Origin: Spirochaetales bacterium
Lineage (GTDB): Bacteria; Spirochaetota; Spirochaetia; SZUA-6
Direction of reading: 5' to 3'
Assembly: GCA_027021365.1 (NCBI GenBank)
Contig: JALUUM010000008.1
Coordinates: forward strand, 2,804-66,803
DNA length: 64,000 nucleotides
Translations under genes and position numbers: made by a program
Notes under the pieces: model-generated
Told to the model about the DNA's origin: nothing
The model's database searches: none
Seen by the model: only the letters and a program-made list of their open reading frames with translations
Shown: in pieces, positions 24,104-60,315 of the stretch
Layout of the letters: the number at the start of each line of letters is the position of its first letter
Numbering within the stretch: the first letter of the stretch is position 1

Positions 24104-24112
24104 GTAAAAAGC

Positions 24113-25318: not shown

Positions 25319-25409
25319 TTTAACTCCATAAAAAATTGATAAAATTCCTCATGACTTTACTCCTAAAACAAAATAATGTCAATATATTTAATAAATATTA
25401 ATATAATAC

Positions 25410-25437
25410 TTGACAAAATTACTTTAAAGTTTATAAT
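25410..25437 (+). promoter_or_regulatory. near-consensus sigma70-type promoter TTGACA-16-TATAAT for the ABC importer operon
   Basis: TTGACA at 25410-25415 and TATAAT at 25432-25437. AAGGAGG RBS about 9 nt upstream of the ATG at 25478. Confidence 0.5.
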
Positions 25438-25477
25438 CTCTTTAGTTTAACAAACAAGCTCTTTAAGGAGGTCATTA

Positions 25478-26758: not shown

Positions 26759-26779
26759 ATAACCAAAACTAATTTACGG

Positions 26780-26815
26780 CAGCTCTTTCGATCTGTTAAA
26801 GTTTAGAAAGAGCTG
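26780..26815 (+). other. 10-bp perfect-stem hairpin between the binding-protein gene and the permease genes
   Basis: CAGCTCTTTC (26780-26789) and GAAAGAGCTG (26806-26815) are reverse complements, with a 16-nt loop and no U-tract. Looks like an intra-operon attenuator or RNA-stability element. Confidence 0.4.
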
Positions 26816-26848
26816 TCCAATTTAGTCTGATAGCAAGAGTGGTAATAA

Positions 26849-27718: not shown

Positions 27719-27725
27719 TAGCGCC

Positions 27726-28580
27726 ATGAAGAGAAAGCATTATTTTTATAACAGGGAATTCTCAGGTTTTTACGGAAAGATTTTAAGCATTTTTCTGATA
27801 CTCGCCTTAATTATATATCTATTGCCTATTGTATGGATGTATATTTCTTCTGCTCGAACAAACGCGGATTTTATTAATGCTCCTTTGAAGATTCCTTCGC
27901 ATCTTTACTTTGGCAACTATGTAAAAGCATTTAAAATGGCGAAAATCGGTTACCATTTTATTATATCATCAATTATTACAACAGTTTCTGTATTCATAAT
28001 TATTGCCTTTTCTTCTCTAGCAGCCTTTTCTTTTTCTCGCTTGCAATATAAGGGGCGAGATCTTCTTTATTCATTATTTTTTCTGGGATTAATTCTTCCT
28101 ACTCAGAGTTTTTTAGTTGGTATGTTTGTTATGTTCAGGGTAACTCATATTCTTAATACCCTTTTTTCTGTTATTCTGCCTATCTCTGCTATAGGTCTTC
28201 CGATTGCTATACTTTTAATAAAGGCATTTTTTGATTCCCTACCCTCTTCTCTAGAGGAAAGTGCCCTCATAGAAGGAGCGAATGTTATCCAGATATTCTG
28301 GTATATAAGTCTGCCTATTGCAAACGCAATTATAGCCACTGTAATTGTTTTTAATACAATAAATGCCTGGAACGAATTTATGCTTCCCTTCGTAATGATA
28401 CAAACTGAAAGACTCAAACCCCTTACAACAAGTCTCTATGTTTTCTCCACAAAACACTCTGCAAAATTAACCCTTAAGCTTGCGGCACTTACAATAATTG
28501 CAACTCCCATGTTCATTGTTTATTTCGTTTTCCAAAATCAAATTCAGAAAGGAATAACTGCCGGAGCCATTAAAGATTAA
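27726..28580 (+). CDS. ABC transporter permease (MalG/UgpE-like)
   Basis: 6-TM permease, 284 aa. No ATPase gene is present in the window. Confidence 0.85.
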   Translation: MKRKHYFYNREFSGFYGKILSIFLILALIIYLLPIVWMYISSARTNADFINAPLKIPSHLYFGNYVKAFKMAKIGYHFIISSIITTVSVFIIIAFSSLAAFSFSRLQYKGRDLLYSLFFLGLILPTQSFLVGMFVMFRVTHILNTLFSVILPISAIGLPIAILLIKAFFDSLPSSLEESALIEGANVIQIFWYISLPIANAIIATVIVFNTINAWNEFMLPFVMIQTERLKPLTTSLYVFSTKHSAKLTLKLAALTIIATPMFIVYFVFQNQIQKGITAGAIKD

Positions 28581-28643
28581 TGTTAATACGGAACACAGTA
28601 GGGTCGTAAAGAATGATACCCTATATAGAGAGGAGAGAATTGA

Positions 28644-29903
28644 ATGGCACACCTTGCACTGAAAGGTGGTAAACCTCTGTATAAGGGCCCCTGGCCCACC
28701 TGGCCGATTGCTAGTGAACCTGAAAAGAATATTTTAAGCAGGGTAATCGACTCCAATAAATGGTCATATAACGGAGATATGGAAAAGACCTTTAATAAAG
28801 AATGGTCGGATTTTACGGGTGCAAATTATTCTTTTTTAGTGTCAAACGGCACAGTAGCGCTTCAACTTGCGCTGGAAGCTCTTGGTATCGGATTCGGAGA
28901 TGAAGTTATTGTTCCGGGTTTAACATGGCAAGCAGATGCCGAAGTTGTCATAAATGTGAATGCAGTACCGATCCTTGTTGATATTGAAGAAGATTCCTGG
29001 TGTATAGACCCGAAAAAAGTAGAGAATGCCTTAACACCCAGGACAAAGGCGATTATTGCTGTACATCTCTTCGGAACTATCTGTGATATTGAAAAACTAA
29101 AAAGAATAGCAAACAGTAAAGGTTTATTTTTAATAGAGGATTGCTCACATCAGCATGGATCTGTTTTTAAAGACAGACACGTAGGCACCTTCGGAGATAT
29201 TGGTACATTTTCGCTTCAGAATACAAAGGTTTTAACCTGCGGGGAGGGTGGCATTATCGTTACAAATAACAGTGAAACGGCTGTTAAGCTCGATGCCTTA
29301 AGAAACTGCGGCCGCAAACCAGAGTCCATATCTTCCGACAAGAATGAAGGGTATTCAAATGAAGGAGATTTAATACAATCCGGCAACTACAGGATTACAG
29401 AGTTTCAGGCGGCTATACTATTGGAGCAGTTTAAACGATTTACTGAACAGGTCAGGATAAGGGACCGTAACGCTGCATACCTTAACAGAGAACTTACTTT
29501 AATTGAAGGGATAAAACCAATGTTAAGGCGTACAGGAACAACAGTGCAGTCCTATTATCAGTTTGCATTCAGGTATGATAGAAAGTATTTCCGTAATGTC
29601 AGTGCAGCTCTTTTTAGAAAAGCTTTAGCAAGTGAGATTGCTTTTGAATTTGATAGCCCGTACAAGCCGCTTAATGACTGGGGGCTTTACAGGCCTTTAA
29701 CTAAAAAGCGACATTATTTAAACAAAGAGTATATGAAATTAATAGACCCTTCCCGCTTTAGGCTTCCGGTATGTTCAAAGGTTTACTACGAAAGCGGTAT
29801 AACAGCCCATCATAGTTTATTGTTAGGGACCAAAGAACAGTGCAGCCTTGTTATCGAGGCAGTTAAAAAGATTAAGAAAAATAGCAATGAGCTCTTAGAA
29901 TAA
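28644..29903 (+). CDS. DegT/DnrJ/EryC1/StrS-family PLP-dependent sugar aminotransferase (second copy)
   Basis: N-terminus MAHLALKGGKPLYKGPWPTWPI parallels that of 24113..25318; 419 aa. Confidence 0.85.
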   Translation: MAHLALKGGKPLYKGPWPTWPIASEPEKNILSRVIDSNKWSYNGDMEKTFNKEWSDFTGANYSFLVSNGTVALQLALEALGIGFGDEVIVPGLTWQADAEVVINVNAVPILVDIEEDSWCIDPKKVENALTPRTKAIIAVHLFGTICDIEKLKRIANSKGLFLIEDCSHQHGSVFKDRHVGTFGDIGTFSLQNTKVLTCGEGGIIVTNNSETAVKLDALRNCGRKPESISSDKNEGYSNEGDLIQSGNYRITEFQAAILLEQFKRFTEQVRIRDRNAAYLNRELTLIEGIKPMLRRTGTTVQSYYQFAFRYDRKYFRNVSAALFRKALASEIAFEFDSPYKPLNDWGLYRPLTKKRHYLNKEYMKLIDPSRFRLPVCSKVYYESGITAHHSLLLGTKEQCSLVIEAVKKIKKNSNELLE

Positions 29904-29920
29904 AAAAGAGAGATGTAAGA

Positions 29921-30679
29921 ATGCAGATAAACGAATTAATTCCGATTCCGGTAATAGATAAATGTAAAAAACTTCTATGTATTCAGCCACACCCTGATGA
30001 TATGGATATAAGCGCAGGAGGTATTATTGCTTATCTTGCAGAAAAAGGTACGGAAATAACATATTTAACAATTACAGACGATTCATCCGGCTTTATCACT
30101 TTAAGAATACCCCATAGAAAACGAAAAAATATTAGAAAGCAAGAACAGGTAAGTGCAGGCAGAATACTGGGGGTAAAAACCTATTACTGGCTGGACTATT
30201 GTGATGCACGTGACTGGAGTCTATATAAAGTACGAAACAGAATTATAGAATATATAAGGCTTATTAAACCGGACTTTGTTCTAACTGTAGATCCCTGGCT
30301 TAGCTATGAGGCGCATAGGGATCATGTTAAATGCGGATTAGCAGTTAGTGAAGCAGTAATACTCCAGAGCCTTCCCTATATAAAAACCCACAGGAGGATA
30401 GACAAAAACTATAGCCCCTATGAGATAAAAGGGATTGCATTTTCTTTTACTGCACATCCCAATACTGTAATTAATACCAAGAAATTCAGAGAGAAAAAGT
30501 TCAAAGCTATTGCAGAACATAAATCTCAGTTTAGCAAGAATGACATTGAGTTGTTGTCTAAGTACGATGAAATACACAACAGTAAACTTGCCGAAAATTA
30601 TGACTTTGATTACGGAGAAGGTTTAAAGGTTCTAAATCCTTCCATGCTCCACTGTTTTGCAGAGGCGGAGTTGGTATAA
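29921..30679 (+). CDS. PIG-L/LmbE-family N-acetylglucosaminyl deacetylase
   Basis: HPDDMDISAGG is the PIG-L HPDDE motif; 252 aa. Confidence 0.75.
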   Translation: MQINELIPIPVIDKCKKLLCIQPHPDDMDISAGGIIAYLAEKGTEITYLTITDDSSGFITLRIPHRKRKNIRKQEQVSAGRILGVKTYYWLDYCDARDWSLYKVRNRIIEYIRLIKPDFVLTVDPWLSYEAHRDHVKCGLAVSEAVILQSLPYIKTHRRIDKNYSPYEIKGIAFSFTAHPNTVINTKKFREKKFKAIAEHKSQFSKNDIELLSKYDEIHNSKLAENYDFDYGEGLKVLNPSMLHCFAEAELV

Positions 30680-30717
30680 GCTAAATTTCTTCTCTTTGAA
30701 ATAATATGGAGGTTTAA

Positions 30718-31737
30718 ATGGTCAAAGTAGCTATTGTTGGTTTAGGGTTTATGGGAAAAATGCATCTGGGAATTTATCTTAATAAACTTCAGGATGTCAA
30801 AGTTACTGCAATATGTGATGAAAATATAAATTCTCTAAATATTAAGAACCTTGCCTCAAAAGGAAATATTAAAATAAGTGAAGGAGTTGTCGATCTTTCG
30901 GGAATAGAAAAATATAAAAATTACGAGTTGATGCTTAAAAATGGTGGGTTTGATTTCGTAGATATATGTCTCCCGACATTTCTTCACAAGAATGCGATAA
31001 TCAAGGCACTAGAGGCAAATTATCATGTATTCTGTGAAAAACCTCTTGCACTTACACTCGAAGAGGGAAATAAGATAATGGAAAAAGTAAAAGAAACAGG
31101 AAAGCTTTTTGCAGTAGGACAGTGTTTAAGATATTGGCCGGCTTATTCTGCAATAAAAAAACTTATAGATAAAGGAAAATATGGAAAAGTCAGTTATGCT
31201 GAATTCGCAAGGTTTTCAGCTACCCCAGAATGGGCTTGGAAAAGCTGGCTTTTGGACAATAATAAATCTGGCAATGCGGCCCTAGATCTTCACATACATG
31301 ATGTGGATATGGTTCTCTATCTCTTTGGCAGACCAAAAAGTGTAAGATCAGCAGGAGTTTTCTGGCAAAATGAGAGTATTGCACATATAACAACAATATA
31401 CAGATACAATGATAAATTAGTAAGTTCCACAGGGGGCTGGATATGTACTAAAAGTTATGGATTCAATATGAGAGCATTTTACATATTAAAAGAAGCTACT
31501 ATAGAACTAGATTTCTCAAAAAGTCCCATTGTCAATATATTTCCCAATAAAGGCAAACCATATGCTTTGACTCTTGCGGAAGATGATGGATACTACTATG
31601 AACTTAAAGATTTTGTTAAGAGCATAGCAAAAGGAAGACTATCCGGAATTGTAAACGTGGAAACTGCATTTGAATCCCTTGAGGTTTGTCTATCTGAAAT
31701 AGATTCTGCAAAAACGAAAAAAGAAATATTTTTATAA
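30718..31737 (+). CDS. Gfo/Idh/MocA-family oxidoreductase
   Basis: MVKVAIVGLGFMGKMH Rossmann N-terminus; 339 aa. Confidence 0.8.
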   Translation: MVKVAIVGLGFMGKMHLGIYLNKLQDVKVTAICDENINSLNIKNLASKGNIKISEGVVDLSGIEKYKNYELMLKNGGFDFVDICLPTFLHKNAIIKALEANYHVFCEKPLALTLEEGNKIMEKVKETGKLFAVGQCLRYWPAYSAIKKLIDKGKYGKVSYAEFARFSATPEWAWKSWLLDNNKSGNAALDLHIHDVDMVLYLFGRPKSVRSAGVFWQNESIAHITTIYRYNDKLVSSTGGWICTKSYGFNMRAFYILKEATIELDFSKSPIVNIFPNKGKPYALTLAEDDGYYYELKDFVKSIAKGRLSGIVNVETAFESLEVCLSEIDSAKTKKEIFL

Positions 31738-31952
31738 GTTAAGTATTTACAACTTTAAAATTCTTTTTATAGAATTCCGGAATATCTGTAACGGTATAAA
31801 AGCAACATGGCTTTGAGAATAAAATTGTGATAAATTTTTATCAATAATTTGTAATATAAAAAGCAATTAAAATAATTGTATTTTCCCCCATTCTGTGGTA
31901 ATATCTAATAATAAAACACTAATATTCAATAAAAGTTATCCAAAGGGAAGAA

Positions 31953-33824
31953 ATGTCCATCCTGTTTTTCATTTCATTGGCAATCACTGACTCTCTGTTA
32001 ATCTATCTCAACTTTAACTCAAATACAATTCTATTAGTCTCTGCAATAATTGTAACTAATGTTTCGTATCTTGCAGGAATCTTACTGTATCGTAAGTTGT
32101 CAAAAAAAGCCAACTCACTCGATGATGAACTAAGAACAACGAGAGAAGAATTATCGAAGACTCTCAAAGAAATATATGAATATACCCAAACGTTGGAAGA
32201 GAACAATAGGAAGATAGACGAACTCGAAGCTGGAAATATCAGTGATCAGGAGCAGATAAACGAGATTCTTTCCGAACTTTCTCTTTATACAAATCAACTT
32301 GAAAGTATAGTAAATACCATAGATTCGGGAATATGTACCATCGATAAGAACTACATCATACAGGCTGATTTCAACAGAAGCTTTAAAAAGATATTCGGTG
32401 AGAGGGAATACTGGGAATCCTCGATTTTCGATACTATCTTCTATAACCTCGATCCGGAGAAAAAAAGGGAGTTAAGAGAATTCCTGGAAATTTCTTTTTC
32501 TAACTCTGCAACTTCCGACAGTATGATTAATGCAGCAAACCCAGTTTCTGAGTTCATCTACATATACAATGAAAAAGGCAAAGTAGAAGAAAAACACATA
32601 TCCATGAAGGTCTCAAGAATATTCAACGAAAAAAAACAAGTAGAAAAACTGATGTTCATCTTTACAGATGTGACACTTCAGAAACTAATGGAAGAAAATA
32701 TTAGAGTAAAAGAGAGAAAATATCAAAACGAATTAGAACTCCTTACCAACATATTTCAATATGAAAAAGAGTTCATCGTATCATTTGTCAATGACCTGAA
32801 TGAACGTCTGCATTTGATTAAGGATAAGATAGATTCTCTGAAAGTTGATGAAATAAACGAAGAAACACTCAAAGAAATTCAGCGTGCAATACATTCAATA
32901 AAAGGAGAAGCCTTTTCACTCGGTTTCAAACAGCTGGCTGAAACATCTGCTGAAATGGAAGAATACATAAAAACCAATTTCAAGAAACCGATCTCCACAG
33001 AGCAAAACCTGGTAATATTAACACATTACACGAAAATAAAAGAAAAAGCCGACCAACTGAATGAAGTAGCCAGAAAAATATTCAGCTACAGTAAAGGTGA
33101 AAAATTAGAAAGCAACAAGCTGTATATTTACCGGGACACCTACAATGAGTTCAAATCCGATTTCAAAAATATAATAAGGTTGAGTGAAGGTGGGAAATTG
33201 GATAGAAAAATCCTGGAGGATTATTACAAGAAAATATTGAAGCTCGACTGGGTTAGTCTGGAGAAACTGAAAGAGGAATTGAAAATTGTAACAGAAAAGA
33301 CCGCAACCACTTACGGGAAGGATGTTGAATTCAATTTCATATATGATTTTGACGGGCTTCCTATAACAACATATAAACTGTTAAAAGAAGTTTTTTTACA
33401 CCTAATAAGGAACAGTATTTCACATGGCATAGAAGAGCCGGAAGAACGGGTTGAGAAAGGAAAATCTCGTACCGGAAAGATTAATATACACCTCTACGAA
33501 GAAGACAATGCCTTTATAGCAAGATACTCTGATGATGGGAAAGGCCTCGATACAGACAATATATTAAAACAAGCCATAAAGAAAGGTCTTATATCAGAAG
33601 ATGAAGCCAGGAAAATGGATGAAAAATCGGTAATGAACCTGATATTTGCAGACGGATTTTCAGTTAAGGAAAACAGCGATATGGTTTCGGGAACGGGAGT
33701 GGGAATGTCCATTGTAAAAAACAACGTATTGTATCTTCTTCATGGAAAACTTACATTGAAAAACACCCCATCTCGCGGTGTATCATTTACAATAAAATTT
33801 CCAAAAGGAGAACAGAATGAGTGA
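31953..33824 (+). CDS. membrane-anchored CheA-like histidine kinase (HPt + HATPase) lacking a CheW-like P5 domain
   Basis: N-terminal TM helices. HPt motif RAIHSIKGEAFSLGF, as in the CheA P1 HSIKG box. HATPase N-box HLIRNSISHGIE, G1 box DDGKGLD and G2 box SGTGVGMSIV. The protein ends right after the HATPase domain. Confidence 0.7.
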   Translation: MSILFFISLAITDSLLIYLNFNSNTILLVSAIIVTNVSYLAGILLYRKLSKKANSLDDELRTTREELSKTLKEIYEYTQTLEENNRKIDELEAGNISDQEQINEILSELSLYTNQLESIVNTIDSGICTIDKNYIIQADFNRSFKKIFGEREYWESSIFDTIFYNLDPEKKRELREFLEISFSNSATSDSMINAANPVSEFIYIYNEKGKVEEKHISMKVSRIFNEKKQVEKLMFIFTDVTLQKLMEENIRVKERKYQNELELLTNIFQYEKEFIVSFVNDLNERLHLIKDKIDSLKVDEINEETLKEIQRAIHSIKGEAFSLGFKQLAETSAEMEEYIKTNFKKPISTEQNLVILTHYTKIKEKADQLNEVARKIFSYSKGEKLESNKLYIYRDTYNEFKSDFKNIIRLSEGGKLDRKILEDYYKKILKLDWVSLEKLKEELKIVTEKTATTYGKDVEFNFIYDFDGLPITTYKLLKEVFLHLIRNSISHGIEEPEERVEKGKSRTGKINIHLYEEDNAFIARYSDDGKGLDTDNILKQAIKKGLISEDEARKMDEKSVMNLIFADGFSVKENSDMVSGTGVGMSIVKNNVLYLLHGKLTLKNTPSRGVSFTIKFPKGEQNE

Positions 33825-34539
33825 GAAATATAAAAAGCCGGAAAAATTAGCGGAAGGTAATTACTGGGTTGGATATACTAACACAGACTCCGCCTTTCGT
33901 ACCAATGCTTACATAATTCAATCCGGAGATGAAATCGCTCTTATAGATGCAGGTTCAGCTTGGTTTTTCAAGAACATGTCAGCTCAAATTGAAACCATAG
34001 TAGATGTAAACAAGATAAAGTATTTTATTCAGCACCATCAGGACCCGGATCTCTGTTCAAGCCTCCCTTTCTGGGAAAAGAAAATTGGTCCAAGAAAAAT
34101 TCTTGCTCATTCCAAGGCTAATATTCTTATCTACCATTACGGAGTCAAATCCGAATTGGTTAACGTGGATTTTATTAATTGGGAACTACAGATGCCGGAC
34201 AGACTAATTAAGTTCATATTCATGCCTTATATGCATTCCCCCGGAGAAATAATGACCTATGATACAAAGACAAAGGTCTTATTCAGCGGAGACATTTTTG
34301 GAGGGCTTTCATTCGACTGGCATCTTTATGCAAATGAAGACTATTTTGAGGCCATGGACGCTTTTATGGAACATTATATGCCCTCGAAAGAGATAGTAAA
34401 TATTAATATGAAAAAAATCGAAAACCTTGAAATATCTATGATATGTCCCCAGCACGGCTCAATAATACCGGGTGACAGGGTAAAAGATGCTATTGAAAAT
34501 ATGAAGAATCTCGAGTGCGGCAGCTATCTTTATGAGTAA
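33817..34539 (+). CDS. metallo-beta-lactamase-fold protein resembling the flavodiiron-core / ODP-type di-iron O2/Fe sensor
   Basis: MBL-fold motifs (ALIDAGS; HHQDPD; FMPYMHSPGE; MICPQHGSII). Size of about 240 aa with no flavodoxin domain. Sits in a chemotaxis-like operon as described for spirochaete ODP (established knowledge, from memory). Confidence 0.55.
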   Translation: MSEKYKKPEKLAEGNYWVGYTNTDSAFRTNAYIIQSGDEIALIDAGSAWFFKNMSAQIETIVDVNKIKYFIQHHQDPDLCSSLPFWEKKIGPRKILAHSKANILIYHYGVKSELVNVDFINWELQMPDRLIKFIFMPYMHSPGEIMTYDTKTKVLFSGDIFGGLSFDWHLYANEDYFEAMDAFMEHYMPSKEIVNINMKKIENLEISMICPQHGSIIPGDRVKDAIENMKNLECGSYLYE

Positions 34540-34556
34540 GAAAAAGGAGATTTAGT

Positions 34557-34832
34557 ATGAATGTGTATAAAAACATGATGGATGTTATTGTAAGAAGAGA
34601 GTTTGCTCTGCTCGGCAGATATCAGACCAGGGAAATATTTAAAAACGCCGGTATTAATATAGACGAAAAAGGCAATATAAGAAATCCGGATGATATTGAA
34701 CCGGAAGATATAGATAAAATATTAAATGAATTAAAAAAGCAAATAGGTTTTATTAGCATCCTTGTAGTTAAGCTCCCTTTGCGGAGATTGGCCATACAGA
34801 ACAATGTTAAGCTACCGAAAACAATTTTGTAA
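34557..34832 (+). CDS. hypothetical protein (91 aa)
   Basis: ORF with GGAG RBS in operon context; no recognisable domain. Confidence 0.3.
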   Translation: MNVYKNMMDVIVRREFALLGRYQTREIFKNAGINIDEKGNIRNPDDIEPEDIDKILNELKKQIGFISILVVKLPLRRLAIQNNVKLPKTIL

Positions 34833-34847
34833 TAACAGGTAATCAAA

Positions 34848-35219
34848 ATGAAAATACTGGTAGTCGATGATTCCAGAATAATGCGAAATGTCCTGAAAAA
34901 TATTTTAAAAGAGAAGCAGATAGATGAAAATGCAATACTCGAAGCCGGCAACGGGGTCGAGGCTCTGGAGATGCTTAAAAACAATGAGGTTGATCTCATA
35001 CTTCTTGACTGGAATATGCCTAAATTAAATGGAATAGAACTAGTCAAAATAGTGAGGAACCATGAGAGACTTAAAGAGATTCCCATAATTATGGTAACTT
35101 CTGAAGCAGCCAGATACAATGTAATGGAGGCAATAAAAGCAGGAGTTACCGATTACATCATAAAGCCTATTAGAGGGGAAATAGTACATAAAAAACTCGA
35201 AGAATTACTGGGACAATAG
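34848..35219 (+). CDS. CheY-like single-domain response regulator
   Basis: MKILVVDDSRIMRNVL...DLILLDWNMPKLNG...MVTSE carries the canonical receiver DD/D/T/K residues. Confidence 0.9.
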   Translation: MKILVVDDSRIMRNVLKNILKEKQIDENAILEAGNGVEALEMLKNNEVDLILLDWNMPKLNGIELVKIVRNHERLKEIPIIMVTSEAARYNVMEAIKAGVTDYIIKPIRGEIVHKKLEELLGQ

Positions 35220-35230
35220 AAGGACAGCCA

Positions 35231-35698
35231 ATGAATGTAAAATACATAAATCCTTTTATAAGTGCAACAATTAATACTTTCAAAGGTTTTTTGGGTGCCG
35301 ATTTGAAAACAGAGAAACCATCTCTTTTCGATAGCAATAAAAGTGAAATCAGATACGACATATCAGGTATAATCGGGCTAGCCGGGGAAGTCAGAGGAGC
35401 CGTCGTTATCAGCTTTCCAAAGCTTGTTGCCCTGAAAATCGTATCGGATTTTTTAAAAGAAGATATCAAGATATTCGGTGAAGACGTGATTGATACTGTT
35501 GGCGAATTGGTAAACATTATAGCCGGAAATGCCAAGAGAGATATGGAAGAATTCAGAATCGTCATTTCGCTTCCTTCGGTAGTCAAAGGCCCAAACCACC
35601 AGATAAGTTGGATGCAGGGTGTTCCGGTAATTCTTATACCTTTTAAAAGCAATTATGGACCGGTGTATCTCTTTGTGAGTTTGAAAGATATAATTTAG
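35231..35698 (+). CDS. CheX/CheC-family CheY-P phosphatase
   Basis: 155 aa. ELVNIIAGNA then P about 21 aa downstream matches the E-x2-N-x22-P motif of the CheC/CheX/FliY family. Confidence 0.75.
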   Translation: MNVKYINPFISATINTFKGFLGADLKTEKPSLFDSNKSEIRYDISGIIGLAGEVRGAVVISFPKLVALKIVSDFLKEDIKIFGEDVIDTVGELVNIIAGNAKRDMEEFRIVISLPSVVKGPNHQISWMQGVPVILIPFKSNYGPVYLFVSLKDII

Positions 35699-35744
35699 GA
35701 CAATATAGATGGGTCAATGAATCAACATTTGCTACAACCATCAA

Positions 35745-36326
35745 TTGAATTCAAAACATACTGAGCGGGACTATCGGAAGTTGAGTATCGGTAAGAATGT
35801 ATACAAACAAAAAATAGTGATGCTTGGCGATTTTGCAGTAGGTAAAACCAGCCTTGTAAACAGGTATGTTTACAATATCTTCAGTGAAAAGTATATAGCC
35901 ACTTTGGGAGTCAGAGTTTCGAAAAAAGACGTTACATTGACTTTAAACAATAAAACAATAAATGTAACCATTCTGCTTTGGGATATAAACAGTGAAGACA
36001 GGTTCCAGCGTGTCCTGCCCCAGTACATCATGGGGGCAAATGGCGCTGTTATTGTAGCCGATGTGACAAGACCTGAAACGATAGAGAATCTGAAACATCA
36101 CATTGAATATTTCCGTACATATGCCGGAGGTAAGGGGATCGTATTGAGCCTGAACAAGACAGACTTGATTAATTATGATCAATTTGGATTCCTTAAACAA
36201 AAAATGGAAAGAGATGCGATTTTTTCAAAAATGCAAACTTTTTTTACAAGTGCCAAAGAGAATCAAAACATAGAAGATCTTTTTATCAACCTTGCCCGCT
36301 TATCGATTGTTTCTAAGGAAGGGTGA
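35745..36326 (+). CDS. Ras-like small GTPase with a non-canonical G3 motif
   Basis: G1 GDFAVGKTSL, G2 Thr in YIATLG, G4 NKTD and G5 TSAKE are all present. G3 is WDINSED instead of WDTAGQE, so the DxxG glycine and catalytic Gln are absent. Confidence 0.7.
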   Translation: MNSKHTERDYRKLSIGKNVYKQKIVMLGDFAVGKTSLVNRYVYNIFSEKYIATLGVRVSKKDVTLTLNNKTINVTILLWDINSEDRFQRVLPQYIMGANGAVIVADVTRPETIENLKHHIEYFRTYAGGKGIVLSLNKTDLINYDQFGFLKQKMERDAIFSKMQTFFTSAKENQNIEDLFINLARLSIVSKEG

Positions 36327-36330
36327 ATCG

Positions 36331-37434
36331 ATGTCTGATATTGTTTACAATGCAATAAGAAAGAGAGTTAAAGTTTTTTTTGAATTCATAGATTCTGAGT
36401 TAATGATTCATCCAACGCAGAATGATTTCTGGGAATATCTTAATATTCGAATACCAGAAAATCCGGTTCCGTTAACAGACATAATTTTCGAATTGGTTGG
36501 AAAAGAAATAGAAATAACCCTGTTACTGAAGGGAGAAAAAAAATCTATAAACATACCGGCAATACAGAGGGAAACAGAAAAAGATAGGAATACTTATTTT
36601 GATCTTGAATTAATCACATGTGACAGGAGTGACTATCCGTTAATCGTTATAATAGAAGACAGGACTCGTATTTTTTCCTACCAACAAAAGCTGGTCCAGA
36701 GTCGCAATGAGACCAAACTTTTACAAAAACAATTAGCAGAAAAAAACAAGGCACTGGAAAAGCTAAATACAATAATTCAGAGACAGAACCTCGACCTTGA
36801 AAAACGGGTGAGAGAACGCACACAGGAACTCCAGAGTGCACGAATAGAGATAATAAGGCGCCTTGCTCAGGCGGCTGAATATCGGGATCCGGAAACAGGA
36901 AGTCACATTGTAAGAATGAGTAAAACATGTGTACTCCTTGCACGGGAAATAGGCCTCAGTGAAAAAGATTGTGACCTGATTTATCACGGTGGTTCGATGC
37001 ATGATCTGGGGAAAATTGCAATTCCCGATGCAATTCTATTGAAACCCGGACCTCTTTCTTCGAAAGAGTGGCAAATAATGAAACAACATACTATCAGAGG
37101 AGCTCGATTACTTTCCGATAATGATACGGATCTAATGATAACCGGCAGAATAATAGCCAGGTCTCACCATGAAAGATGGGATGGCAATGGATATCCGGAT
37201 GGAATATCCGGGGAAAACATACATATTTTTGCGAGAATATGTGCTCTTGCCGATGTTTTTGACGCCCTTGTGTCTGACAGGCCGTATAAGAAAGCCTGGC
37301 CATTTGAAAGAGCAATCTCTACAATCGAAGAAGGAAGCGGGACACAGTTTGATCCTGAAATCGTTAAAGCCTTCCTCGATATATCAGACAAGGCCATTAA
37401 ACTTCAGCAAGATTTTAAAGATAAATCAACTTAA
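36331..37434 (+). CDS. HD-GYP domain protein (putative c-di-GMP phosphodiesterase) with an N-terminal domain of unknown function
   Basis: C-terminal HD...HHERWDGNGYPDG matches the HD-GYP signature. ATG at 36331 has a GAAGGG RBS. The ORF-track start at 36292 overlaps the GTPase gene. Confidence 0.85.
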   Translation: MSDIVYNAIRKRVKVFFEFIDSELMIHPTQNDFWEYLNIRIPENPVPLTDIIFELVGKEIEITLLLKGEKKSINIPAIQRETEKDRNTYFDLELITCDRSDYPLIVIIEDRTRIFSYQQKLVQSRNETKLLQKQLAEKNKALEKLNTIIQRQNLDLEKRVRERTQELQSARIEIIRRLAQAAEYRDPETGSHIVRMSKTCVLLAREIGLSEKDCDLIYHGGSMHDLGKIAIPDAILLKPGPLSSKEWQIMKQHTIRGARLLSDNDTDLMITGRIIARSHHERWDGNGYPDGISGENIHIFARICALADVFDALVSDRPYKKAWPFERAISTIEEGSGTQFDPEIVKAFLDISDKAIKLQQDFKDKST

Positions 37435-37436
37435 AA

Positions 37437-38390
37437 ATGATGAGGACTTTATCATTCAAAGATAAAAAAACCATGCTCTCAATTCTTTCTCAACATCAAT
37501 TTCTTTTTGGTTTAGGAGCAATTACATACGACAGTAACACCAGAGAGCAAACAAGTGATTTACTAAGAGCAGTTGAAAATTCACAACTAAATTCCGGAAA
37601 TATATATTCTATAGTTTCCATAATCCGGCAGCATAGTCTAATATTCGGAGAAGGCCTTATTTCTTCGGATCAAAATGTAATATCGGAAGACAAAAAATTG
37701 ATTCAAAAATTATACAAGTTACTTCACAGCGAGGAGAAATATATTCCAACAATTATTCCCAGAGTTAACTACTTGAATTACAAAAGAAATCTTTCTAAAG
37801 AGATAGAAAAAAGAAAATTGATAAAAGAAAAACCAGATCCCGGAGGCTATCCTCTTTTCGGGAAAAAACGTATCGCCCTTAGAAAAATCAGCAAAGGATA
37901 CTTGATTCTTTTTAACCTTCCCAAAAACTACGAAAAACCCTCTATGATTTTTGTTCATATAATTTCAATCAAGCATAGCGAGAGCATTCATTATGAAAAT
38001 GAAAAAGTTGTCATTCTCACCAAGAACTATATTCATACTATCCTAATTTCAAATAAAGATATAAACGAAGAGTGTAAATACAAAAAAATATCTAGAACTG
38101 CATTCAATGTTCCTTTAAGCTCTAACAACCTTCTTGCTATAAGTACAAAAACCAATTTTAATATCTGCATTTCAGGCACGCCACACGATCCTGCTGCAAA
38201 TATACGATTGAAAAGCAATCCCTCTAACAATGAATATTCATACTTCTTTCCTGCTTCAAACAGCTCATTCCCCAAGATTGATCCTTTCTTAACCAATCTT
38301 ATAAAATATATTACAAAGATTTCTCAAAGAGAAGCTGACAATATCTCATATTTTATAACAAGAAAAATATTCCGGGAAAATCAGCTGTAA
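37437..38390 (+). CDS. hypothetical protein (317 aa), last gene of the chemosensory-like operon
   Basis: Starts 3 nt after the HD-GYP stop. AT-rich, with no recognisable motif. Confidence 0.4.
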   Translation: MMRTLSFKDKKTMLSILSQHQFLFGLGAITYDSNTREQTSDLLRAVENSQLNSGNIYSIVSIIRQHSLIFGEGLISSDQNVISEDKKLIQKLYKLLHSEEKYIPTIIPRVNYLNYKRNLSKEIEKRKLIKEKPDPGGYPLFGKKRIALRKISKGYLILFNLPKNYEKPSMIFVHIISIKHSESIHYENEKVVILTKNYIHTILISNKDINEECKYKKISRTAFNVPLSSNNLLAISTKTNFNICISGTPHDPAANIRLKSNPSNNEYSYFFPASNSSFPKIDPFLTNLIKYITKISQREADNISYFITRKIFRENQL

Positions 38391-38424
38391 ATTGATAGAA
38401 CTTACACAATCTTGATTAATAAAC

Positions 38425-40182
38425 TTACTTCAGTTCAATCACAGAAAAAGAAACTCTCCTGTTCTTTCGCATGTCATCTTTAGTTTTTTCAATAACAATA
38501 GGTTCATCCGAACCAACACCTCTGACAATTAATACATTATTGGGAATTCCCAATTCAACCAGTTTTTCCACCACTCTCTTAGCACGATCAATGCTCAAGG
38601 CCAGACTTTGTGCATCGGTGATCTGCCCCGTAGTATGGCCGGTTACCGTGAAGACAAGACTTCCTTTATACATGGCAATAAGCTTTTTTATTATATTTGC
38701 CGCTCTGACAATAGTCTCTTCTTCGCCTTGCATAGCATTTGCAGAACCAGGGGTGAAATATACATTCAATCGCTCGAGTTCCTTGACGGCAGAGTAATAC
38801 TCATTGCTTAACCCTGATATATTAAATTTAAATACCCCTGGTATGGCCCCACTTATTAACCTGCTTCTGTCAATCCATTCCTCCGTAACATTTCCCGTTG
38901 CATATAAGATTCCATCTTTAAAGGAAAGTTCTACGTCATCAGGGGGTTTAAGAATCATTTTAGCCCTTTTTAGTACAAGTTGCGGTTCTAGAGAAACGTA
39001 GGGTTTCATTTCAAAGCTAAATAATTCTAAAGGCAGTCCTGCTTTTATAATGATAGCCAATGGTTTTTCACTCAGCGGGTCTCTCAAACCATTAATATGT
39101 ATTTTCCCTTTCGACTTGTATGTTTCCGTTATAACTATCCCGGGTTGCATAGACAACAAGTCAAGAGCCTTTTTACCATTCATCCCTTCCAGAGCTGAAC
39201 GAGTGACAAAAAAACCTGCAATACCCAAAAAAAGTACAAGAATAGCAACCAGAGCTTTTGGAAACTTCTTTGCCGATCCCTTAAGTTCAACTTCCAAACA
39301 GTCTGTAAGAATGGACTCTGTTCCCTTAAACTTTCCGATCTCCCCATCAAAATTTTCCAGGTAATGGCCAAATTTTAAATGTATGGTTTCCAATACATCC
39401 TGCATTTTCCACCTAAGTTCAGGGGTTGGGGTTCCCTGAATAACCAGTGCCAGTACGGCAAAGGGACTCTGTTCAATCCATATAACAAAATCACCAACTT
39501 CAAAAGAATCAACGGTTTCTCTCTTACTCAGATTGAGGGAATCTTTTATAAAATCCTGGACTGCATTGAGCATGGCGGCAACCATGTCACCATCACTTAC
39601 TGCCGAGTTTTCAGTAACAACGCGGTTCAATAAAATTCCCGATTTCCGATGTATCAGGAATACTTCCTCGACCCTGAAAACAATCGATTCTTTCAAGGCT
39701 ATTTCTGCAAAACTTTTTCCGGTCTTTATCGATTCGATTCTCCACTTGATTGACTTGAAAGACAAGCTTTTTTCGAGGGAACGATTCATCGATTGTATCG
39801 TTTCCCTCATGAATTTGGCCAATGCTTTGCGTATTGCCGGTCCTATTACAGGAAACAGAGCTTCTGCGAGAACATTACTGTCCCTTTCAGTCGATTGCTT
39901 AACAGCTTTCTCTGTAGGTTCCACAAGGGCTTTTGAAAGCTGAGTACCTTCTTTGTCTTTCAGGATGATTGCTTCCGGAAGAACGTCTTTCACTGTTTCC
40001 GGTGTAATCGAGCCTCTGTCAAGGATCTTCAAAAGATCCCCTAACTGCTTCTGTTCTTCTTCCCGAAGGAGAGAACCTGCGTCTTTTAAATTATTCTTAC
40101 TACCTGTTCTGTTCGACTTTCTCATAGAAATAGGATTATAAAAGAAAATCGTAAAAGAATCTAACCGTTTTTTCGGTTGCAT
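38425..40182 (-). CDS. OmpA/MotB-family peptidoglycan-binding protein with a ~300-aa cytoplasmic N-terminal domain and a single TM
   Basis: C-terminus TVTGHTTGQITDAQSLALSIDRAKRVVEKLVELGIPNNVLIVRGVGSDEPI is an OmpA_C-like domain. TM helix ALVAILVLFLGIAGFFV lies around residue 310. Confidence 0.75.
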   Translation of the reverse strand: MQPKKRLDSFTIFFYNPISMRKSNRTGSKNNLKDAGSLLREEEQKQLGDLLKILDRGSITPETVKDVLPEAIILKDKEGTQLSKALVEPTEKAVKQSTERDSNVLAEALFPVIGPAIRKALAKFMRETIQSMNRSLEKSLSFKSIKWRIESIKTGKSFAEIALKESIVFRVEEVFLIHRKSGILLNRVVTENSAVSDGDMVAAMLNAVQDFIKDSLNLSKRETVDSFEVGDFVIWIEQSPFAVLALVIQGTPTPELRWKMQDVLETIHLKFGHYLENFDGEIGKFKGTESILTDCLEVELKGSAKKFPKALVAILVLFLGIAGFFVTRSALEGMNGKKALDLLSMQPGIVITETYKSKGKIHINGLRDPLSEKPLAIIIKAGLPLELFSFEMKPYVSLEPQLVLKRAKMILKPPDDVELSFKDGILYATGNVTEEWIDRSRLISGAIPGVFKFNISGLSNEYYSAVKELERLNVYFTPGSANAMQGEEETIVRAANIIKKLIAMYKGSLVFTVTGHTTGQITDAQSLALSIDRAKRVVEKLVELGIPNNVLIVRGVGSDEPIVIEKTKDDMRKNRRVSFSVIELK

Positions 40183-40716: not shown

Positions 40717-41172
40717 ATGTATCGTCTTATTCTTTTATTTCTTGCAGGCATTCTTTTATTTGGATGTACCAACAACTATATCAGTAAAACAAAGAACTAC
40801 CTTATTGTGGACCAACCCTCCAATAAAGTAATAAGCGAATATGAGTATAACGAATCAGATAATACATTAAGAAGAACAATAAGCTATGGCAAAGATGGAA
40901 AAGTTAAAAAGATAATCAATTATGAATATGATAGAAGGGGTTATCTAATCAAAACGGTAGAGTCTGTTCCTCTCCAGGAGTCAAAAGAAATTACCTATTA
41001 TACTGAAGAGCATAAGGATAAAAGTGGGAGACTTGTAAAAACAATTCAAATTTCATCAGAAGGAAAAAAAATTGAAACCTATTACGGATACGATGAAGAG
41101 GGTAATTTAAGAGGAGTTGTGGAACAGGTAAATAACAAATCTGTGATTATGAAAGATTATCCGCATGAATAA
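40717..41172 (+). CDS. small lipoprotein with YD/RHS-like repeats
   Basis: Lipobox LLFGC. Repeats YEYDRRGYLIKT, YYTEEHKDKSGRLVKT and YYGYDEEGNLRGV match the YxYDxxGRL pattern. Confidence 0.55.
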   Translation: MYRLILLFLAGILLFGCTNNYISKTKNYLIVDQPSNKVISEYEYNESDNTLRRTISYGKDGKVKKIINYEYDRRGYLIKTVESVPLQESKEITYYTEEHKDKSGRLVKTIQISSEGKKIETYYGYDEEGNLRGVVEQVNNKSVIMKDYPHE

Positions 41173-42601
41173 AAAATATTTATTTCCAGCAATATTTCTT
41201 TTTGTCTTAGGGGTTACTCAGGGTTTATATGCCGATTCTCGTATTCCCTATTCTGAAGTAATACTGAATAAAAATGTAATAGACTTGCGTGCAAACATGC
41301 AGTTGAAGTCGTCGATTAATAACCGACCGGTAAGGTATTCAACCCCGGAAGATCTTAGAATAGGGTCGATCTTTTTAACTGCGGACAATGAGGCGAGAAA
41401 AGTTGTAAATATCTATGAAAGAAATGGTAAAACAGTCATAGAAACAGTTAAACCAAGACCAGAAGAGGTTTTTATAGATGCTTATGTCCCGGATTTTAAC
41501 GTTAAGCTCGACCGATCCGATATTGATTTGTCCTCTCTCGGGAAGGGAGTTACATTACTACCACCTGGAACCCCAGAAAAGGATATGCTTTTTTCAGGTT
41601 TTAATCAAACATCTACAACATTTAAAACCGAAAGTGTAAACTGGCTGGAAACAGACCCTGATAATGCGGGGCTCGATATAATAGCGCTTAATATAGATAC
41701 GCCTCTATTTAAGAGCTCTCTCTCCACAGATGATATGGAATTATTAGAGAAGATAAAAACCTCAGGGAAAAAGGCAAAGAAAAAAAAGGGAAAAACTACA
41801 GAAACAAGTGTAGGTGGCACACCCGAAGTTTCTTTCGGTACTTCCGGGGAGATTCATCTCCTTGGCACGTTACGTTTAAGAAAACCAACAATATCGGGCG
41901 GACTTAAAATGCCGAGTATCACTGTTACATGGGTTCATGACTGGTGGATAGTCTATCACCCTGAATTCCGTCATAACAAAGGCTATCTAAAAGCAAATTT
42001 CACGGCTGCTCAGCAATTTGATTTTCGGTTAACAGGAACTGTTAAACTGGAATCCGAAATAATAATTCCAATCTTTGAAATAATTGTAGAGGATCCTGAT
42101 ACTACTCTTTTCATGAAAGTGGGTTTTTACGCTAAAATAGGTCTTACGGGAACTATTTCGATTATAATCGAAGCATCTGAGTACACAAAACTTTCAGCCG
42201 GTGTAACATGCGACCTTGCATGGCCCTTTATTCCTTATAAGTATAGCGGGCATCAGAACAACTATGGAAACTTTGCTTTTCGACCAATTCTTGCAGCACA
42301 GGCAAGGCTCCAGGCCGGTCTTTATTTGGGTGGTAGTTTTGGTATGGCTTCTATTGACTTTGCAGGGGTGGAAGCCGGAGGAGGAGGTTATATACAGGCT
42401 GAGGGCTACATGGAACCTATGGGTATTATGGGCTACGATACAGAGCTTGGTGGCTACGGCAATTTTGACAATTGGATACTCGATCTCACTGCAGAGGCAG
42501 GTGCATATGTGGAGGTAGGAGCAAGTATTCTTACCATAGGAATACCAATATATTCACATGACTGGCCCTTCTGGGAATGGAACCAGAGCTGGGAGTTATA
42601 G
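41165..42601 (+). CDS. secreted protein with a Gly/aromatic-rich C-terminal region (possible beta-barrel)
   Basis: Signal peptide MNKKYLFPAIFLFVLGVTQGLYA; 478 aa; no family recognised. Confidence 0.45.
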   Translation: MNKKYLFPAIFLFVLGVTQGLYADSRIPYSEVILNKNVIDLRANMQLKSSINNRPVRYSTPEDLRIGSIFLTADNEARKVVNIYERNGKTVIETVKPRPEEVFIDAYVPDFNVKLDRSDIDLSSLGKGVTLLPPGTPEKDMLFSGFNQTSTTFKTESVNWLETDPDNAGLDIIALNIDTPLFKSSLSTDDMELLEKIKTSGKKAKKKKGKTTETSVGGTPEVSFGTSGEIHLLGTLRLRKPTISGGLKMPSITVTWVHDWWIVYHPEFRHNKGYLKANFTAAQQFDFRLTGTVKLESEIIIPIFEIIVEDPDTTLFMKVGFYAKIGLTGTISIIIEASEYTKLSAGVTCDLAWPFIPYKYSGHQNNYGNFAFRPILAAQARLQAGLYLGGSFGMASIDFAGVEAGGGGYIQAEGYMEPMGIMGYDTELGGYGNFDNWILDLTAEAGAYVEVGASILTIGIPIYSHDWPFWEWNQSWEL

Positions 42602-42604
42602 CAA

Positions 42605-43888
42605 ATGAAATTGATTAAATGTTTATTAATAAGCATTACTGCTTTTCCATTTCTGCTATTAGCAAACTGCAATCTTTTGAACTTATCCGGCAACAATATG
42701 GAAACAGAAAAAATCAATTACTATTCAAAAGAAGTTGAAGTAAGCAGATATGTAGATCCGGGTGAATCTGACCTGGAACCTGTAGAGAGCTATATCTACG
42801 ATGATACCGGTAAACTGAGTGCTGTATTTATTAACCTCTATGAGGATGTTAATGGAGATGGATATTACTTAAACACCAGAACCAATATCTATCAGGTAGA
42901 TGAAAACGGCAATAAAACTCTTATTCAATACTATAAATATACATATAGGAAGGATATCTATGAATATTTAGACGATGAAGGTATTACACAATCCGATTTT
43001 GTTTATGAGCTTCTTACAGGAGAAGTCTGGAGTACCAATAATACTCCGGATGATGAAACGGATGATATAAAAGAACACTATTATATTGTTACATATACGA
43101 CGAATGATGACACGATCTATGAAGATTATCTATCAATAATAGATTATGATAAAGATAATAATATTACCAATCGGCAAGATGATACTTATCAAGTAGATGG
43201 GGATGGCAATCGAAGATATAGAACGGAAAAATTCTATAGCTTAAGTGATCCGGCTGATCCTAATACGCTTTCCCTCTCATCTGAATATGCCGCATGGTTA
43301 GATACTTCTGCTCCCTATGACATACTCTATGAACTCTACCATTCTGTGCGAAGCAGTAATGGCACTGACGAATTTTATTTCTATACGAAATATGAAAGAA
43401 ACGACTCAGGAGATATTTACCAGCAAACAGATTATGTATACGACGATCCCTCTATGCCAAAATTGAATAATGGTGATTACCAAGACGGATCATTGGATGA
43501 CAGTGGACCTTATACCATCAGTTTTGACGCTATCGGTAAAATGGCCACAGTATTACAATCGGAATATGACAGTAAAGGAAATGTAATAAAAGATGAGCGA
43601 TTCTTAGATGGACAGCTAAAAGAATACACAATTTATAGGTACAATGAATCTTCCGAATTAATAGATAAAATTAGATATACAAATGGTGGGAGCTTTATCC
43701 ACGACCGTACTTCCATAAGGTATCATGATGAAATCCGTGACGGAGTTTATAATCGTATAAAAGAAACATTCATTTATAAGTACTATGATTATGAAAGTAC
43801 CGGAGAAGGTCAAAAGGTTATTAGGGAACTTAATAATAACGATTCAAACTGCCGCTTAAAAAAACCAGAAAATAACCATATTCATTAA
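42605..43888 (+). CDS. lipoprotein with YD/RHS-like repeats (427 aa)
   Basis: Lipobox LLANC. Repeats YIYDDTGKLSAV, YVYDDPSMPK and EYDSKGNVIKDERF. Confidence 0.5.
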   Translation: MKLIKCLLISITAFPFLLLANCNLLNLSGNNMETEKINYYSKEVEVSRYVDPGESDLEPVESYIYDDTGKLSAVFINLYEDVNGDGYYLNTRTNIYQVDENGNKTLIQYYKYTYRKDIYEYLDDEGITQSDFVYELLTGEVWSTNNTPDDETDDIKEHYYIVTYTTNDDTIYEDYLSIIDYDKDNNITNRQDDTYQVDGDGNRRYRTEKFYSLSDPADPNTLSLSSEYAAWLDTSAPYDILYELYHSVRSSNGTDEFYFYTKYERNDSGDIYQQTDYVYDDPSMPKLNNGDYQDGSLDDSGPYTISFDAIGKMATVLQSEYDSKGNVIKDERFLDGQLKEYTIYRYNESSELIDKIRYTNGGSFIHDRTSIRYHDEIRDGVYNRIKETFIYKYYDYESTGEGQKVIRELNNNDSNCRLKKPENNHIH

Positions 43889-43900
43889 GGTTGACAGCAT

Positions 43901-48864: not shown

Positions 48865-48895
48865 TGTGTATTAAGAAAATTATGAAGGTAAATAG

Positions 48896-51382: not shown

Positions 51383-51391
51383 AATAAATCC

Positions 51392-54513: not shown

Positions 54514-54529
54514 GTCAGAGGAGGAAATT

Positions 54530-54874: not shown

Positions 54875-54875
54875 C

Positions 54876-60314: not shown

Positions 60315-60315
60315 T

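Follow-up and report, generated by a model that had tools for sequence, protein, structure and literature searches.

Gene Content and Layout of the Locus

Here, we analyzed a row of signalling genes in a 64,000-nucleotide (nt) stretch of contig JALUUM010000008.1 from a Spirochaetales bacterium; this whole 64 kb stretch is referred to as the window, and all positions are counted from its first letter unless a locus designation (L number) is given. The eight open reading frames (ORFs) on the + strand at 31953–38390 were confirmed and agree with the genes called publicly on this metagenome contig of 165.5 kb. A Pfam scan bore out all domain calls of the original prediction, which had been made from the bare sequence: Hpt, HATPase_c, ODP, Response_reg, CheX, Ras and HD-GYP. 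That prediction regarded the row as one self-contained eight-gene pathway. Instead, the row consists of two separately distributed modules, and a ninth, convergent gene lies beyond its end.

Module 1 (31953–35698) is composed of five + strand genes. These encode a CheA-type kinase of 623 amino acids (aa) without a P5 domain (31953–33824), the oxygen-binding di-iron protein ODP (240 aa, 33817–34539), a protein of 91 aa named p91 (34557–34832), a CheY-type single-domain response regulator (123 aa, 34848–35219) and a CheX-type phosphatase for phosphorylated CheY (CheY-P) (155 aa, 35231–35698). Module 2 (35745–40182) continues on the + strand with a Rup-type (Rab/Ras-like) small GTPase (35745–36326), a predicted HD-GYP phosphodiesterase for cyclic di-GMP (c-di-GMP) (367 aa, 36331–37434) and a protein of 317 aa with unassigned fold, named p317 (37437–38390). 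It is completed by the convergent gene on the − strand (38425–40182), whose 585-aa product combines a domain of unknown function (DUF), a transmembrane (TM) helix and an OmpA domain. The intergenic spacings in row order are −8, 17, 15, 11, 46, 4 and 2 nt, which replace the 3–13 nt given previously.

Five further loci of related spirochaete genomes hold the same eight genes and the convergent OmpA gene in identical order. In those loci where flanks were listed, the genes on either side are unlike those of the window. The gene block is far beyond chance. The idea that no relative would conserve the arrangement, raised by the original prediction as a possible refutation, therefore fails.

A CheA-Type Kinase without a P5 Domain

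The first gene product matched the Pfam families Hpt (2.2e-9) and HATPase_c (7.2e-14), together with a weak PAS match. Its residues 419–617 matched the NCBIfam CheA models with an E-value (E) of 1.9e-41, and its C-terminal 200 residues aligned with the P3–P4 region of Thermotoga maritima CheA in the PDB (E 3e-32). The ATPase boxes N, G1, F and G2 read HLIRNSxxHGIE, DDGxG, GFS and SGxGxGM, respectively. For P3 (H-kinase_dim), no Pfam match was obtained in the kinase, and the alignment with T. maritima CheA P3–P4 begins at residue 409 and includes only a partial P3. In a published survey of CheAs, the H-kinase_dim domain was often missed by HMMER (PMC10542144).

The hydropathy profile shows two hydrophobic helices at the N-terminus (aa 1–46), in agreement with the earlier reading of a kinase with its own TM helices. 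These helices are joined by a loop of about 5 residues and therefore leave no periplasmic domain. They are followed by a coiled coil (aa ~50–113) and by a PAS-like domain (aa 114–241), of which Cys128 is invariant in 13 spirochaete homologues (alignment A1). The HPt domain spans aa 274–341 and contains the phospho-accepting His314 (nt 32892–32894) in the motif HxIKGE; this histidine is present in 44 of 44 relatives. The P4 ATPase domain covers aa ~455–618, and the protein terminates 5 aa past it.

P5 is absent from the kinase and from all 44 distinct homologues, 13 of them close, and every one stops no more than 35 residues after P4. P5 loss is a trait of this kinase family, and the earlier statement that the kinase ends without P5 holds. 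A hidden Markov model (HMM) built from the P5 domains of 20 canonical CheAs gave zero CheW/P5 matches in any frame of the window, and no CheW-like domain was found in the ~20 kb neighbourhoods of the 13 spirochaete kinase loci. As a positive control, the same HMM returned 54 matches, all in loci with a canonical P5-bearing CheA.

In the survey of 13,673 CheAs, the CheW-like domain was present in 100% of the proteins and defines the family (PMC10542144). Because this domain is absent, the kinase described here falls outside the family definition and would be missed by such surveys; it is CheA-type, yet not a CheA in that sense. Literature searches for P5-less CheA-like kinases yielded no relevant description. 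One relative of 1021 aa (P0052) carries a CheX domain along with the CheA-type ATPase, i.e., a kinase–phosphatase fusion, and the same survey separately reports CheC/CheX fusions in Leptospirae (PMC10542144).

The Kinase–CheY–CheX Core and Its Distribution

The CheY-type protein matched Response_reg (4.7e-29), and its best PDB match is Helicobacter pylori CheY1 (E 4e-32). It possesses the full acid pocket, with DD7-8, D54 within DWNMP, T84, Y102 and K106. It scored 102.9 against the NCBIfam CheY equivalog, below the cut-off of 189, and is therefore not an orthologue of the E. coli type. The CheX-type protein matched PF13690 (3.3e-25) and PDB entries of CheX and CheC-like proteins (E 1.7e-23), and its E..N motif lies within GELVNIIAGN.

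All close relatives of the kinase stem from uncultured Spirochaetota metagenome-assembled genomes (MAGs), which are labelled Spirochaetales, Leptospiraceae and, for one MAG, Brevinema. Relatives with 22–29% identity over the PAS-HPt-P4 region were found in Cyclobacteriaceae, Reichenbachiella, Calditrichota, Gammaproteobacteria, Verrucomicrobiota and other groups. The kinase is flanked by both CheY and CheX in 29 of the 44 loci, with the order kinase–CheY–CheX in 25 and CheY–CheX placed just upstream in 4. The remaining loci contain CheY only (5), CheX only (2) or neither (8, some of which sit at contig ends). In more distant spirochaete members (37–39% identity), the kinase, CheY and CheX stand alone. 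These three proteins form a core triad that recurs across several phyla.

ODP and p91 as a Putative Input Cassette

ODP matched PF19583 with an E-value of 3e-57 and 194.1 bits, against a gathering cut-off of 27.2. The best PDB matches are the two solved ODPs, 6qrq and 6qnm (E 4e-27 and 1e-22), and the motifs HQDPD, HS.G, FSGD and PQHG are identical to theirs in pairwise alignments. The ODP gene shares its first 8 nt with the end of the kinase gene. ODP is an established O2/Fe sensor, and its action on CheA passes through a sensor-less receptor (PMC7666581, PMC6978683). Among the nine cluster products, Pfam scans revealed no chemoreceptor (MCP) family, nor does one appear in the precomputed Pfam list of the other called genes of the locus.

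The neighbouring p91 had no match in Pfam, NCBIfam or PDB sequences, and we know of no description of this protein. Its AlphaFold2 (AF2) model consists of four helices with a predicted local distance difference test score (pLDDT) of 89.5. The p91 family is limited to 14 clusters among 1.84 billion representatives, all of 90–95 aa and standalone. For the three distant homologues that were placed on contigs, the ODP gene lies directly upstream of p91 in every case. The ODP–p91 pair was further detected on short unrelated metagenome contigs (L173–L177), with identities of 24–31% for p91 and 42–56% for ODP. Many distant p91 relatives contain a conserved cysteine (GC[KR]I) at the position where the window clade reads VVKL. 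In a fold search, p91 resembled the distal helical half of H-NOX only at non-significant scores (TM-score 0.52–0.56, E ≥ 0.4), and this likeness is kept as a lead only. As a candidate adaptor, p91 may link ODP to the kinase.

Only the window, its four closest relatives and one 55%-identical relative have ODP and p91 placed between the kinase and CheY. Both are absent from the operon of a 43%-identical kinase (L003 9583–13673, also L004), which contains a hemerythrin gene, the kinase with hemerythrin fused to its N-terminus, CheY, CheX and a second separate hemerythrin gene. The two proteins ODP and p91 form an optional input cassette, for which hemerythrin is substituted in this relative. Since two unrelated di-iron O2-binding proteins fill the same slot, the O2/iron input is supported independently, and the original suggestion of such an input is reinforced.

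Two further loci were noted. A Calditrichaceae locus with a P5-less kinase carries an ODP homologue (31% identity; L061 76–795) about 8 kb away on the opposite strand. In the 55% relative, the gene after cheX (L002 14047–14964) is listed as PF28239 (Npun_R2479) in the precomputed table, and our own Pfam scan of it was empty.

The Rup-Type GTPase and Its Envelope Partner

The first protein of module 2 matched the Pfam families Ras (1.2e-27) and Roc (3.9e-24), with Rab21, Rab6 and Ypt6 as best PDB matches. Its start codon may be TTG 35745 or TTG 35781. The G3 motif (nt 35982–35996) reads D-I-N-S-E versus D-T-A-G-Q in Ras (WDINSE vs. WDTAGQ), while G1, G2 (Thr), G4 (NKxD) and G5 (SAK) are intact and kept throughout the window clade; the label of a degenerate GTPase is thus correct for G3 only. 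Among 74 aligned relatives, WDxxGED forms are the commonest at G3, and WDINSED is unique to the window clade. Judged from this alignment, the change of Gln to Glu is a trait of the GTPase family and the loss of Gly belongs to the window clade alone. An identity as MglA with an MglB partner was rejected, as the GTPase is closest to the Rab type and keeps the G3 aspartate, and no Roadblock family match was found in the nine cluster products.

Rup GTPases have been described as Rab/Ras-like proteins without the G3 glutamine, of which Group 1 resides in a conserved neighbourhood (Wuichet and Søgaard-Andersen 2014, PMC4316618). Three other genes complete that neighbourhood, encoding a protein with an unknown domain, a TM helix and an OmpA domain, a coiled-coil protein and a signalling output, and an invariant glutamine in the N-terminal region of the output was suggested to work in trans (PMC4316618). 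By their domains and motifs, genes 6–8 of the row and the convergent OmpA gene match this Group 1 neighbourhood, which was already described bioinformatically (PMC4316618). Literature searches for experimental work on Rup systems returned nothing relevant.

A metagenome scan with the window GTPase recovered 80 loci, of which the 45 long ones were used for neighbourhood counts. In 41 of these 45, the GTPase is adjoined by a homologue of the N-domain of the window OmpA-domain protein, with 33–43% identity and E down to 1e-73. In the scanned loci, the GTPase precedes a histidine kinase, a class III cyclase or an HD-GYP protein. The OmpA-domain protein itself (OmpA 8e-12) comprises a conserved cytoplasmic N-domain of ~300 aa, a TM helix (aa 306–332) and a periplasmic OmpA-like peptidoglycan-binding domain; it is 62–65% identical within the clade, and its public gene call begins at 40125. 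These features point to an envelope partner of the Rup system. Rup neighbourhoods (L141, L172, L123, L160) often hold extra single-domain receiver genes, whose identity to the window CheY reaches 43%. The kinases and receiver genes in such neighbourhoods suggest that Rup systems commonly interface with phosphorelays.

The HD-GYP Enzyme and p317

The HD-GYP protein, counted from ATG 36331, matched HD_5 (2.4e-32) with the motif HHERWDGNGYP. It is composed of a Rup-associated N-domain (aa 1–128), a coiled coil and the HD-GYP domain (aa 163–365). In comparison with PmGH (PDB 4mcw, E 1e-58), all 8 metal ligands are kept (E185, H189, H221, D222, H250, H276, H277 and D305), as are the PETG signature, GYP, R314 and K317. 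Hydrolysis of c-di-GMP by a tri-iron-type HD-GYP enzyme is predicted from these residues.

When the N-terminal 150 aa of the HD-GYP protein were searched against 6043 ORFs with jackhmmer, only Rup-adjacent outputs were retrieved. Gln123 (nt 36697–36699), within the motif D.T...Q..NE..L, is Gln in all 42 printed alignment rows, its column reaching or exceeding the 80% identity cut-off. A profile from only four close HD-GYP N-domains did not reach the N-domains of a cyclase and a kinase in another spirochaete (L091), but an iterative search over more diverse Rup-adjacent outputs did.

For p317, no match was found in Pfam, NCBIfam or PDB sequences. This protein evolves fast, with 43–44% identity where ODP keeps 94%, and only four homologues were found; it is lineage-restricted apart from one remote homologue in another spirochaete. 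That homologue, a p317-like protein, is encoded last in an operon (L091 4845–8807; also L161, L163), behind the genes for a Rup GTPase, a class III nucleotide cyclase and a hybrid histidine kinase, and an OmpA partner is lacking within 8 kb. The fold matches of p317 were discarded as meaningless owing to its poor AF2 model (pLDDT 59). Its identification as the canonical Rup coiled-coil protein was likewise rejected, as the two are not homologous.

Junction of the Two Modules and Transcription

Modules 1 and 2 are adjacent only in the window, L005, L006/L007 and L011/L093, which form one Spirochaetales clade with kinase identities of 69–75%. In L005–L007, the upstream flank consists of an amino-acid permease and Fe-S-related genes, compared with sugar-metabolism genes in the window. 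Module 1 (kinase, ODP, p91, CheY and CheX) exists without the GTPase block in the 55%-identical relative, and all long metagenome loci examined from outside the window clade have module 2 but no Che genes.

At the cheX–GTPase junction, neither a terminator-like site nor a stable hairpin (z = 0.18) was found. The gap measures 46 nt in the window and 15 nt in L006 and L007. Because no terminator or hairpin interrupts the junction and the gap shrinks to 15 nt in L006, the two modules are likely co-transcribed.

The promoter-like element of the original prediction was corrected in position. A weak sigma-70-like element on the + strand (31876–31904), read directly from the letters, combines TTGTAT (31876–31881), a 17-nt spacer and TAATAT (31899–31904) preceded by TG, in the 215-nt gap upstream of the kinase. 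The TTGTAT −35 box matches only 3 of 6 positions, and the site falls below the −35 threshold of the consensus scan. Furthermore, promoter-like sites are not enriched in the region, with 32 found versus 30.2 expected from shuffles. This candidate operon promoter is plausible by position, but it is not evidence.

Proposed Mechanism and Alternative Explanations

The best explanation, which we consider fairly probable, is that the row encodes two signalling modules transcribed together, namely a phosphorelay without receptor or CheW and a switch of the Group 1 Rup type. Domain identities, the absence of P5, synteny, distribution and motifs were observed directly and form its basis, and from these we infer the steps of regulation and cross-talk, i.e., the regulation of the kinase by ODP, the role of p91, the target of CheY-P and the control of the HD-GYP enzyme by the GTPase.

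In the relay, the membrane-tethered, cytoplasm-facing kinase would autophosphorylate on His314 and hand the phosphoryl group to CheY, and CheX would quickly reset CheY-P. Control of the kinase would come from the cytoplasmic side, exerted by its PAS-like domain and, in this lineage, also by ODP. The Fe(II) or peroxo state of ODP probably sets kinase autophosphorylation, either directly or via p91. Such an ODP–kinase contact would replace the sensor-less chemoreceptor used by ODP in Treponema denticola. Since the window CheY closely resembles motor CheYs, CheY-P most likely acts on the flagellar switch. In module 2, the Rab-like GTPase without the catalytic Gln would bind the N-domain of the HD-GYP protein and thereby gate the tri-iron c-di-GMP phosphodiesterase, and the invariant Gln of this N-domain may complete the GTPase site in trans. 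The DUF-TM-OmpA protein would anchor module 2 to the inner membrane and peptidoglycan.

Several points weigh against this explanation. The joining of the modules is a single evolutionary event in one clade, and their adjacency may be an accident of insertion. The canonical Rup coiled-coil component (~170 aa, IRDILFG plus coiled coil), which is found in 32 of the 45 loci, is absent among window ORFs of at least 50 aa (best E 0.39). The GTPase of the window clade additionally lacks the G3 glycine and may not cycle at all. Cyclobacteriaceae and related Bacteroidota are gliding, non-flagellated organisms; because distant relatives of the triad occur there, the motor cannot be the universal target of CheY. 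Finally, the evidence is purely genomic and the organisms are uncultured MAGs.

The alternative that fares best is the linear pathway of the original prediction, in which ODP acts on the kinase, CheY-P binds the GTPase, the HD-GYP N-domain or p317 to control c-di-GMP or polarity, and CheX resets the system. The tight, unidirectional row with its terminator-free junction is consistent with such a pathway, as is the conservation of the nine-gene block as a unit behind a different upstream flank in L005–L007. The HD-GYP protein itself lacks a receiver domain, histidine kinases and single receiver genes are frequent in Rup neighbourhoods elsewhere, and a precedent exists in the Frz system, whose effect on the MglA GTPase runs via response regulators (PMC3441718, PMC4316618). 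However, the junction is confined to one clade, and each half is found by itself: module 1 in the 55% relative, kinase–CheY–CheX without the GTPase block in remoter relatives, and module 2 without Che genes in all long loci outside the window clade. In addition, CheY is most like the motor-binding CheYs. We therefore regard the linear pathway as possible but doubtful. The same doubt applies to cross-talk from CheY-P to module 2, for which adjacency in a single clade is the argument. A tighter formulation, in which CheY-P from an array-free, ODP/p91-regulated kinase directly controls the Rab-like GTPase and the tri-iron HD-GYP enzyme at the envelope, appears slightly less probable again.

Within module 2, the GTPase might instead be a nucleotide-locked or nucleotide-free adaptor, i.e., a pseudo-GTPase that scaffolds the HD-GYP protein to the OmpA-domain protein. 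The G3 sequence DINSE is in favour of this possibility, as the switch II Gly that is kept outside the window clade is Ser here, besides the family-wide change of Gln to Glu. In Ras, the glycine of DxxG is needed for the GTP-driven transition of switch II. On the other hand, the intact, clade-conserved G1, G2, G4 and G5 motifs argue for nucleotide binding under selection, and the putative trans-acting Gln123 is kept in the HD-GYP N-domain, which makes the adaptor unlikely in our assessment.

An even smaller chance is given to ODP being a metabolic or detoxifying di-iron enzyme for O2 or NO reduction that is merely co-expressed. Its relationship to flavodiiron NO/O2 reductases, visible in NCBIfam and PDB matches, would allow such a function. 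In contrast, its 194-bit score with the ODP model is far above that of the general Lactamase_B family, the flavodoxin domain is missing, and the protein has 240 aa versus ~400 for flavodiiron proteins. Moreover, its gene is wedged between kinase and CheY with its start overlapping the kinase stop, hemerythrin, including a kinase-fused form, takes its place in a relative, and ODP is documented as a sensor (PMC7666581, PMC6978683). An enzymatic role is therefore very improbable.

Last, the view that truncation or mis-assembly of a canonical CheA explains the kinase, with P5 encoded elsewhere, the assembly error named by the original prediction as a possible refutation, has only the unusual architecture in its favour and is effectively refuted by the shared end of the 13 close and 44 total homologues at most 35 residues past P4, by the same protein on independent assemblies, by the ODP gene overlapping the kinase stop codon and by the empty CheW/P5 search in all frames of the window.

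Significance

Every component of the row belongs to a known kind. Several points appear to be undescribed: a widespread class formed by the triad of P5-less CheA-type kinase, CheY and CheX, the wiring of ODP to a P5-less kinase without a receptor, and the pairing of ODP with p91. The original prediction knew of no description of the combined Che/GTPase/HD-GYP wiring. Group 1 Rup systems are on record (PMC4316618); an HD-GYP-output Rup system in Spirochaetota, in one operon with a Che-type relay, does appear undescribed.

The triad implies that a CheA-type kinase can be a self-contained membrane sensor without coupling domain, receptor or CheW. This P5-less design with CheY and CheX extends across several phyla and is invisible to surveys that define CheA by the CheW-like domain. 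ODP and p91 would constitute a portable O2/iron input cassette, simpler than receptor arrays for studying the effect of ODP on kinase phosphorylation. The HD-GYP output provides a simple assayable enzyme for Group 1 Rup systems, and the idea that a glutamine in trans serves as GTPase-activating element is directly testable with it. If CheY-P indeed controlled the GTPase and the HD-GYP enzyme, this would be the first operon-encoded link from a Che phosphorelay via a eukaryote-like small GTPase to c-di-GMP, and the first assayable function for Group 1 Rup systems.

Further Observations in the Window

The window regions 8000–18000 and 50000–62000 have a GC content of 45–50%, compared with ~35% elsewhere, and showed no rRNA, tRNA or Rfam match; no RNA genes of these kinds were found in the whole 64 kb. 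The high-GC stretches encode ordinary enzymes, namely a GFO/IDH/MocA oxidoreductase, a metallophosphoesterase, a DUF6259 protein, a Na/H exchanger, a beta-eliminating lyase, an amidohydrolase and a dihydropyrimidine-dehydrogenase-like pair, and may be acquired islands. Upstream of the row, an amino-sugar cluster (21237–31737) comprises a ROK regulator, a NAGidase, two DegT-type aminotransferases, an ABC sugar transporter, a PIG-L deacetylase and a GFO/IDH/MocA oxidoreductase; it is not kept beside the operon in relatives. Downstream, a run of + strand genes at 40717–49903 encodes proteins of 151, 478, 427, 564 aa and more, the first three without a confident Pfam family in the precomputed table.

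Comparison with Known Systems

The O2/Fe(II) chemotaxis input of Treponema denticola consists of ODP (TDE2498), the sensor-less receptor TDE2496 and CheA (Muok et al. 2019, as reported in PMC7666581 and PMC6978683). The window system resembles it by an ODP with the same metal-site motifs, a spirochaete host and the genetic tie to a CheA-type kinase, CheY and CheX. It differs by the absence of a chemoreceptor, CheW and P5 within the locus and the 64 kb window, and by an ODP gene placed directly after a membrane-anchored, PAS-containing kinase and always followed by the 91-aa protein.

Compared with the canonical CheA of E. coli and T. maritima (PMC10542144), the HPt site, the CheA-type ATP boxes and the company of CheY and a CheC/CheX-class phosphatase are shared. 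In contrast, the window kinase is devoid of P5 and, unlike CheA, is equipped with a membrane anchor and a PAS-like sensor domain.

Module 2 shares with Group 1 Rup systems, which are known from genome analysis only (PMC4316618), the GTPase without G3 Gln, the unknown-TM-OmpA partner and an output with an invariant Gln. However, the output is an HD-GYP protein here, while the paper lists GGDEF/EAL proteins or histidine kinases (PMC4316618). Furthermore, p317 stands in place of the coiled-coil component, the OmpA gene is convergent, the G3 Gly is lost, and Spirochaetota are not in the phylum list of that paper (PMC4316618).

A Che-type phosphorelay and a Ras-superfamily GTPase also come together in the Frz/RomR/MglA/MglB system of Myxococcus xanthus (PMC3441718), where they form one behavioural circuit and so offer a precedent. 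Unlike the window GTPase, MglA belongs to another GTPase family with a Roadblock GTPase-activating protein, and the genes concerned lie apart from frz; the window cluster contains no MglB-like gene.

The predicted phosphodiesterase is closest to PmGH, the tri-iron HD-GYP protein of Persephonella marina (PMC4159591), with which its catalytic domain (E 1e-58) shares the metal ligands, the E-T-G signature, GYP and the substrate residues. PmGH carries an N-terminal GAF domain, whereas the window enzyme has the Rup-associated N-domain and a coiled coil at this position.

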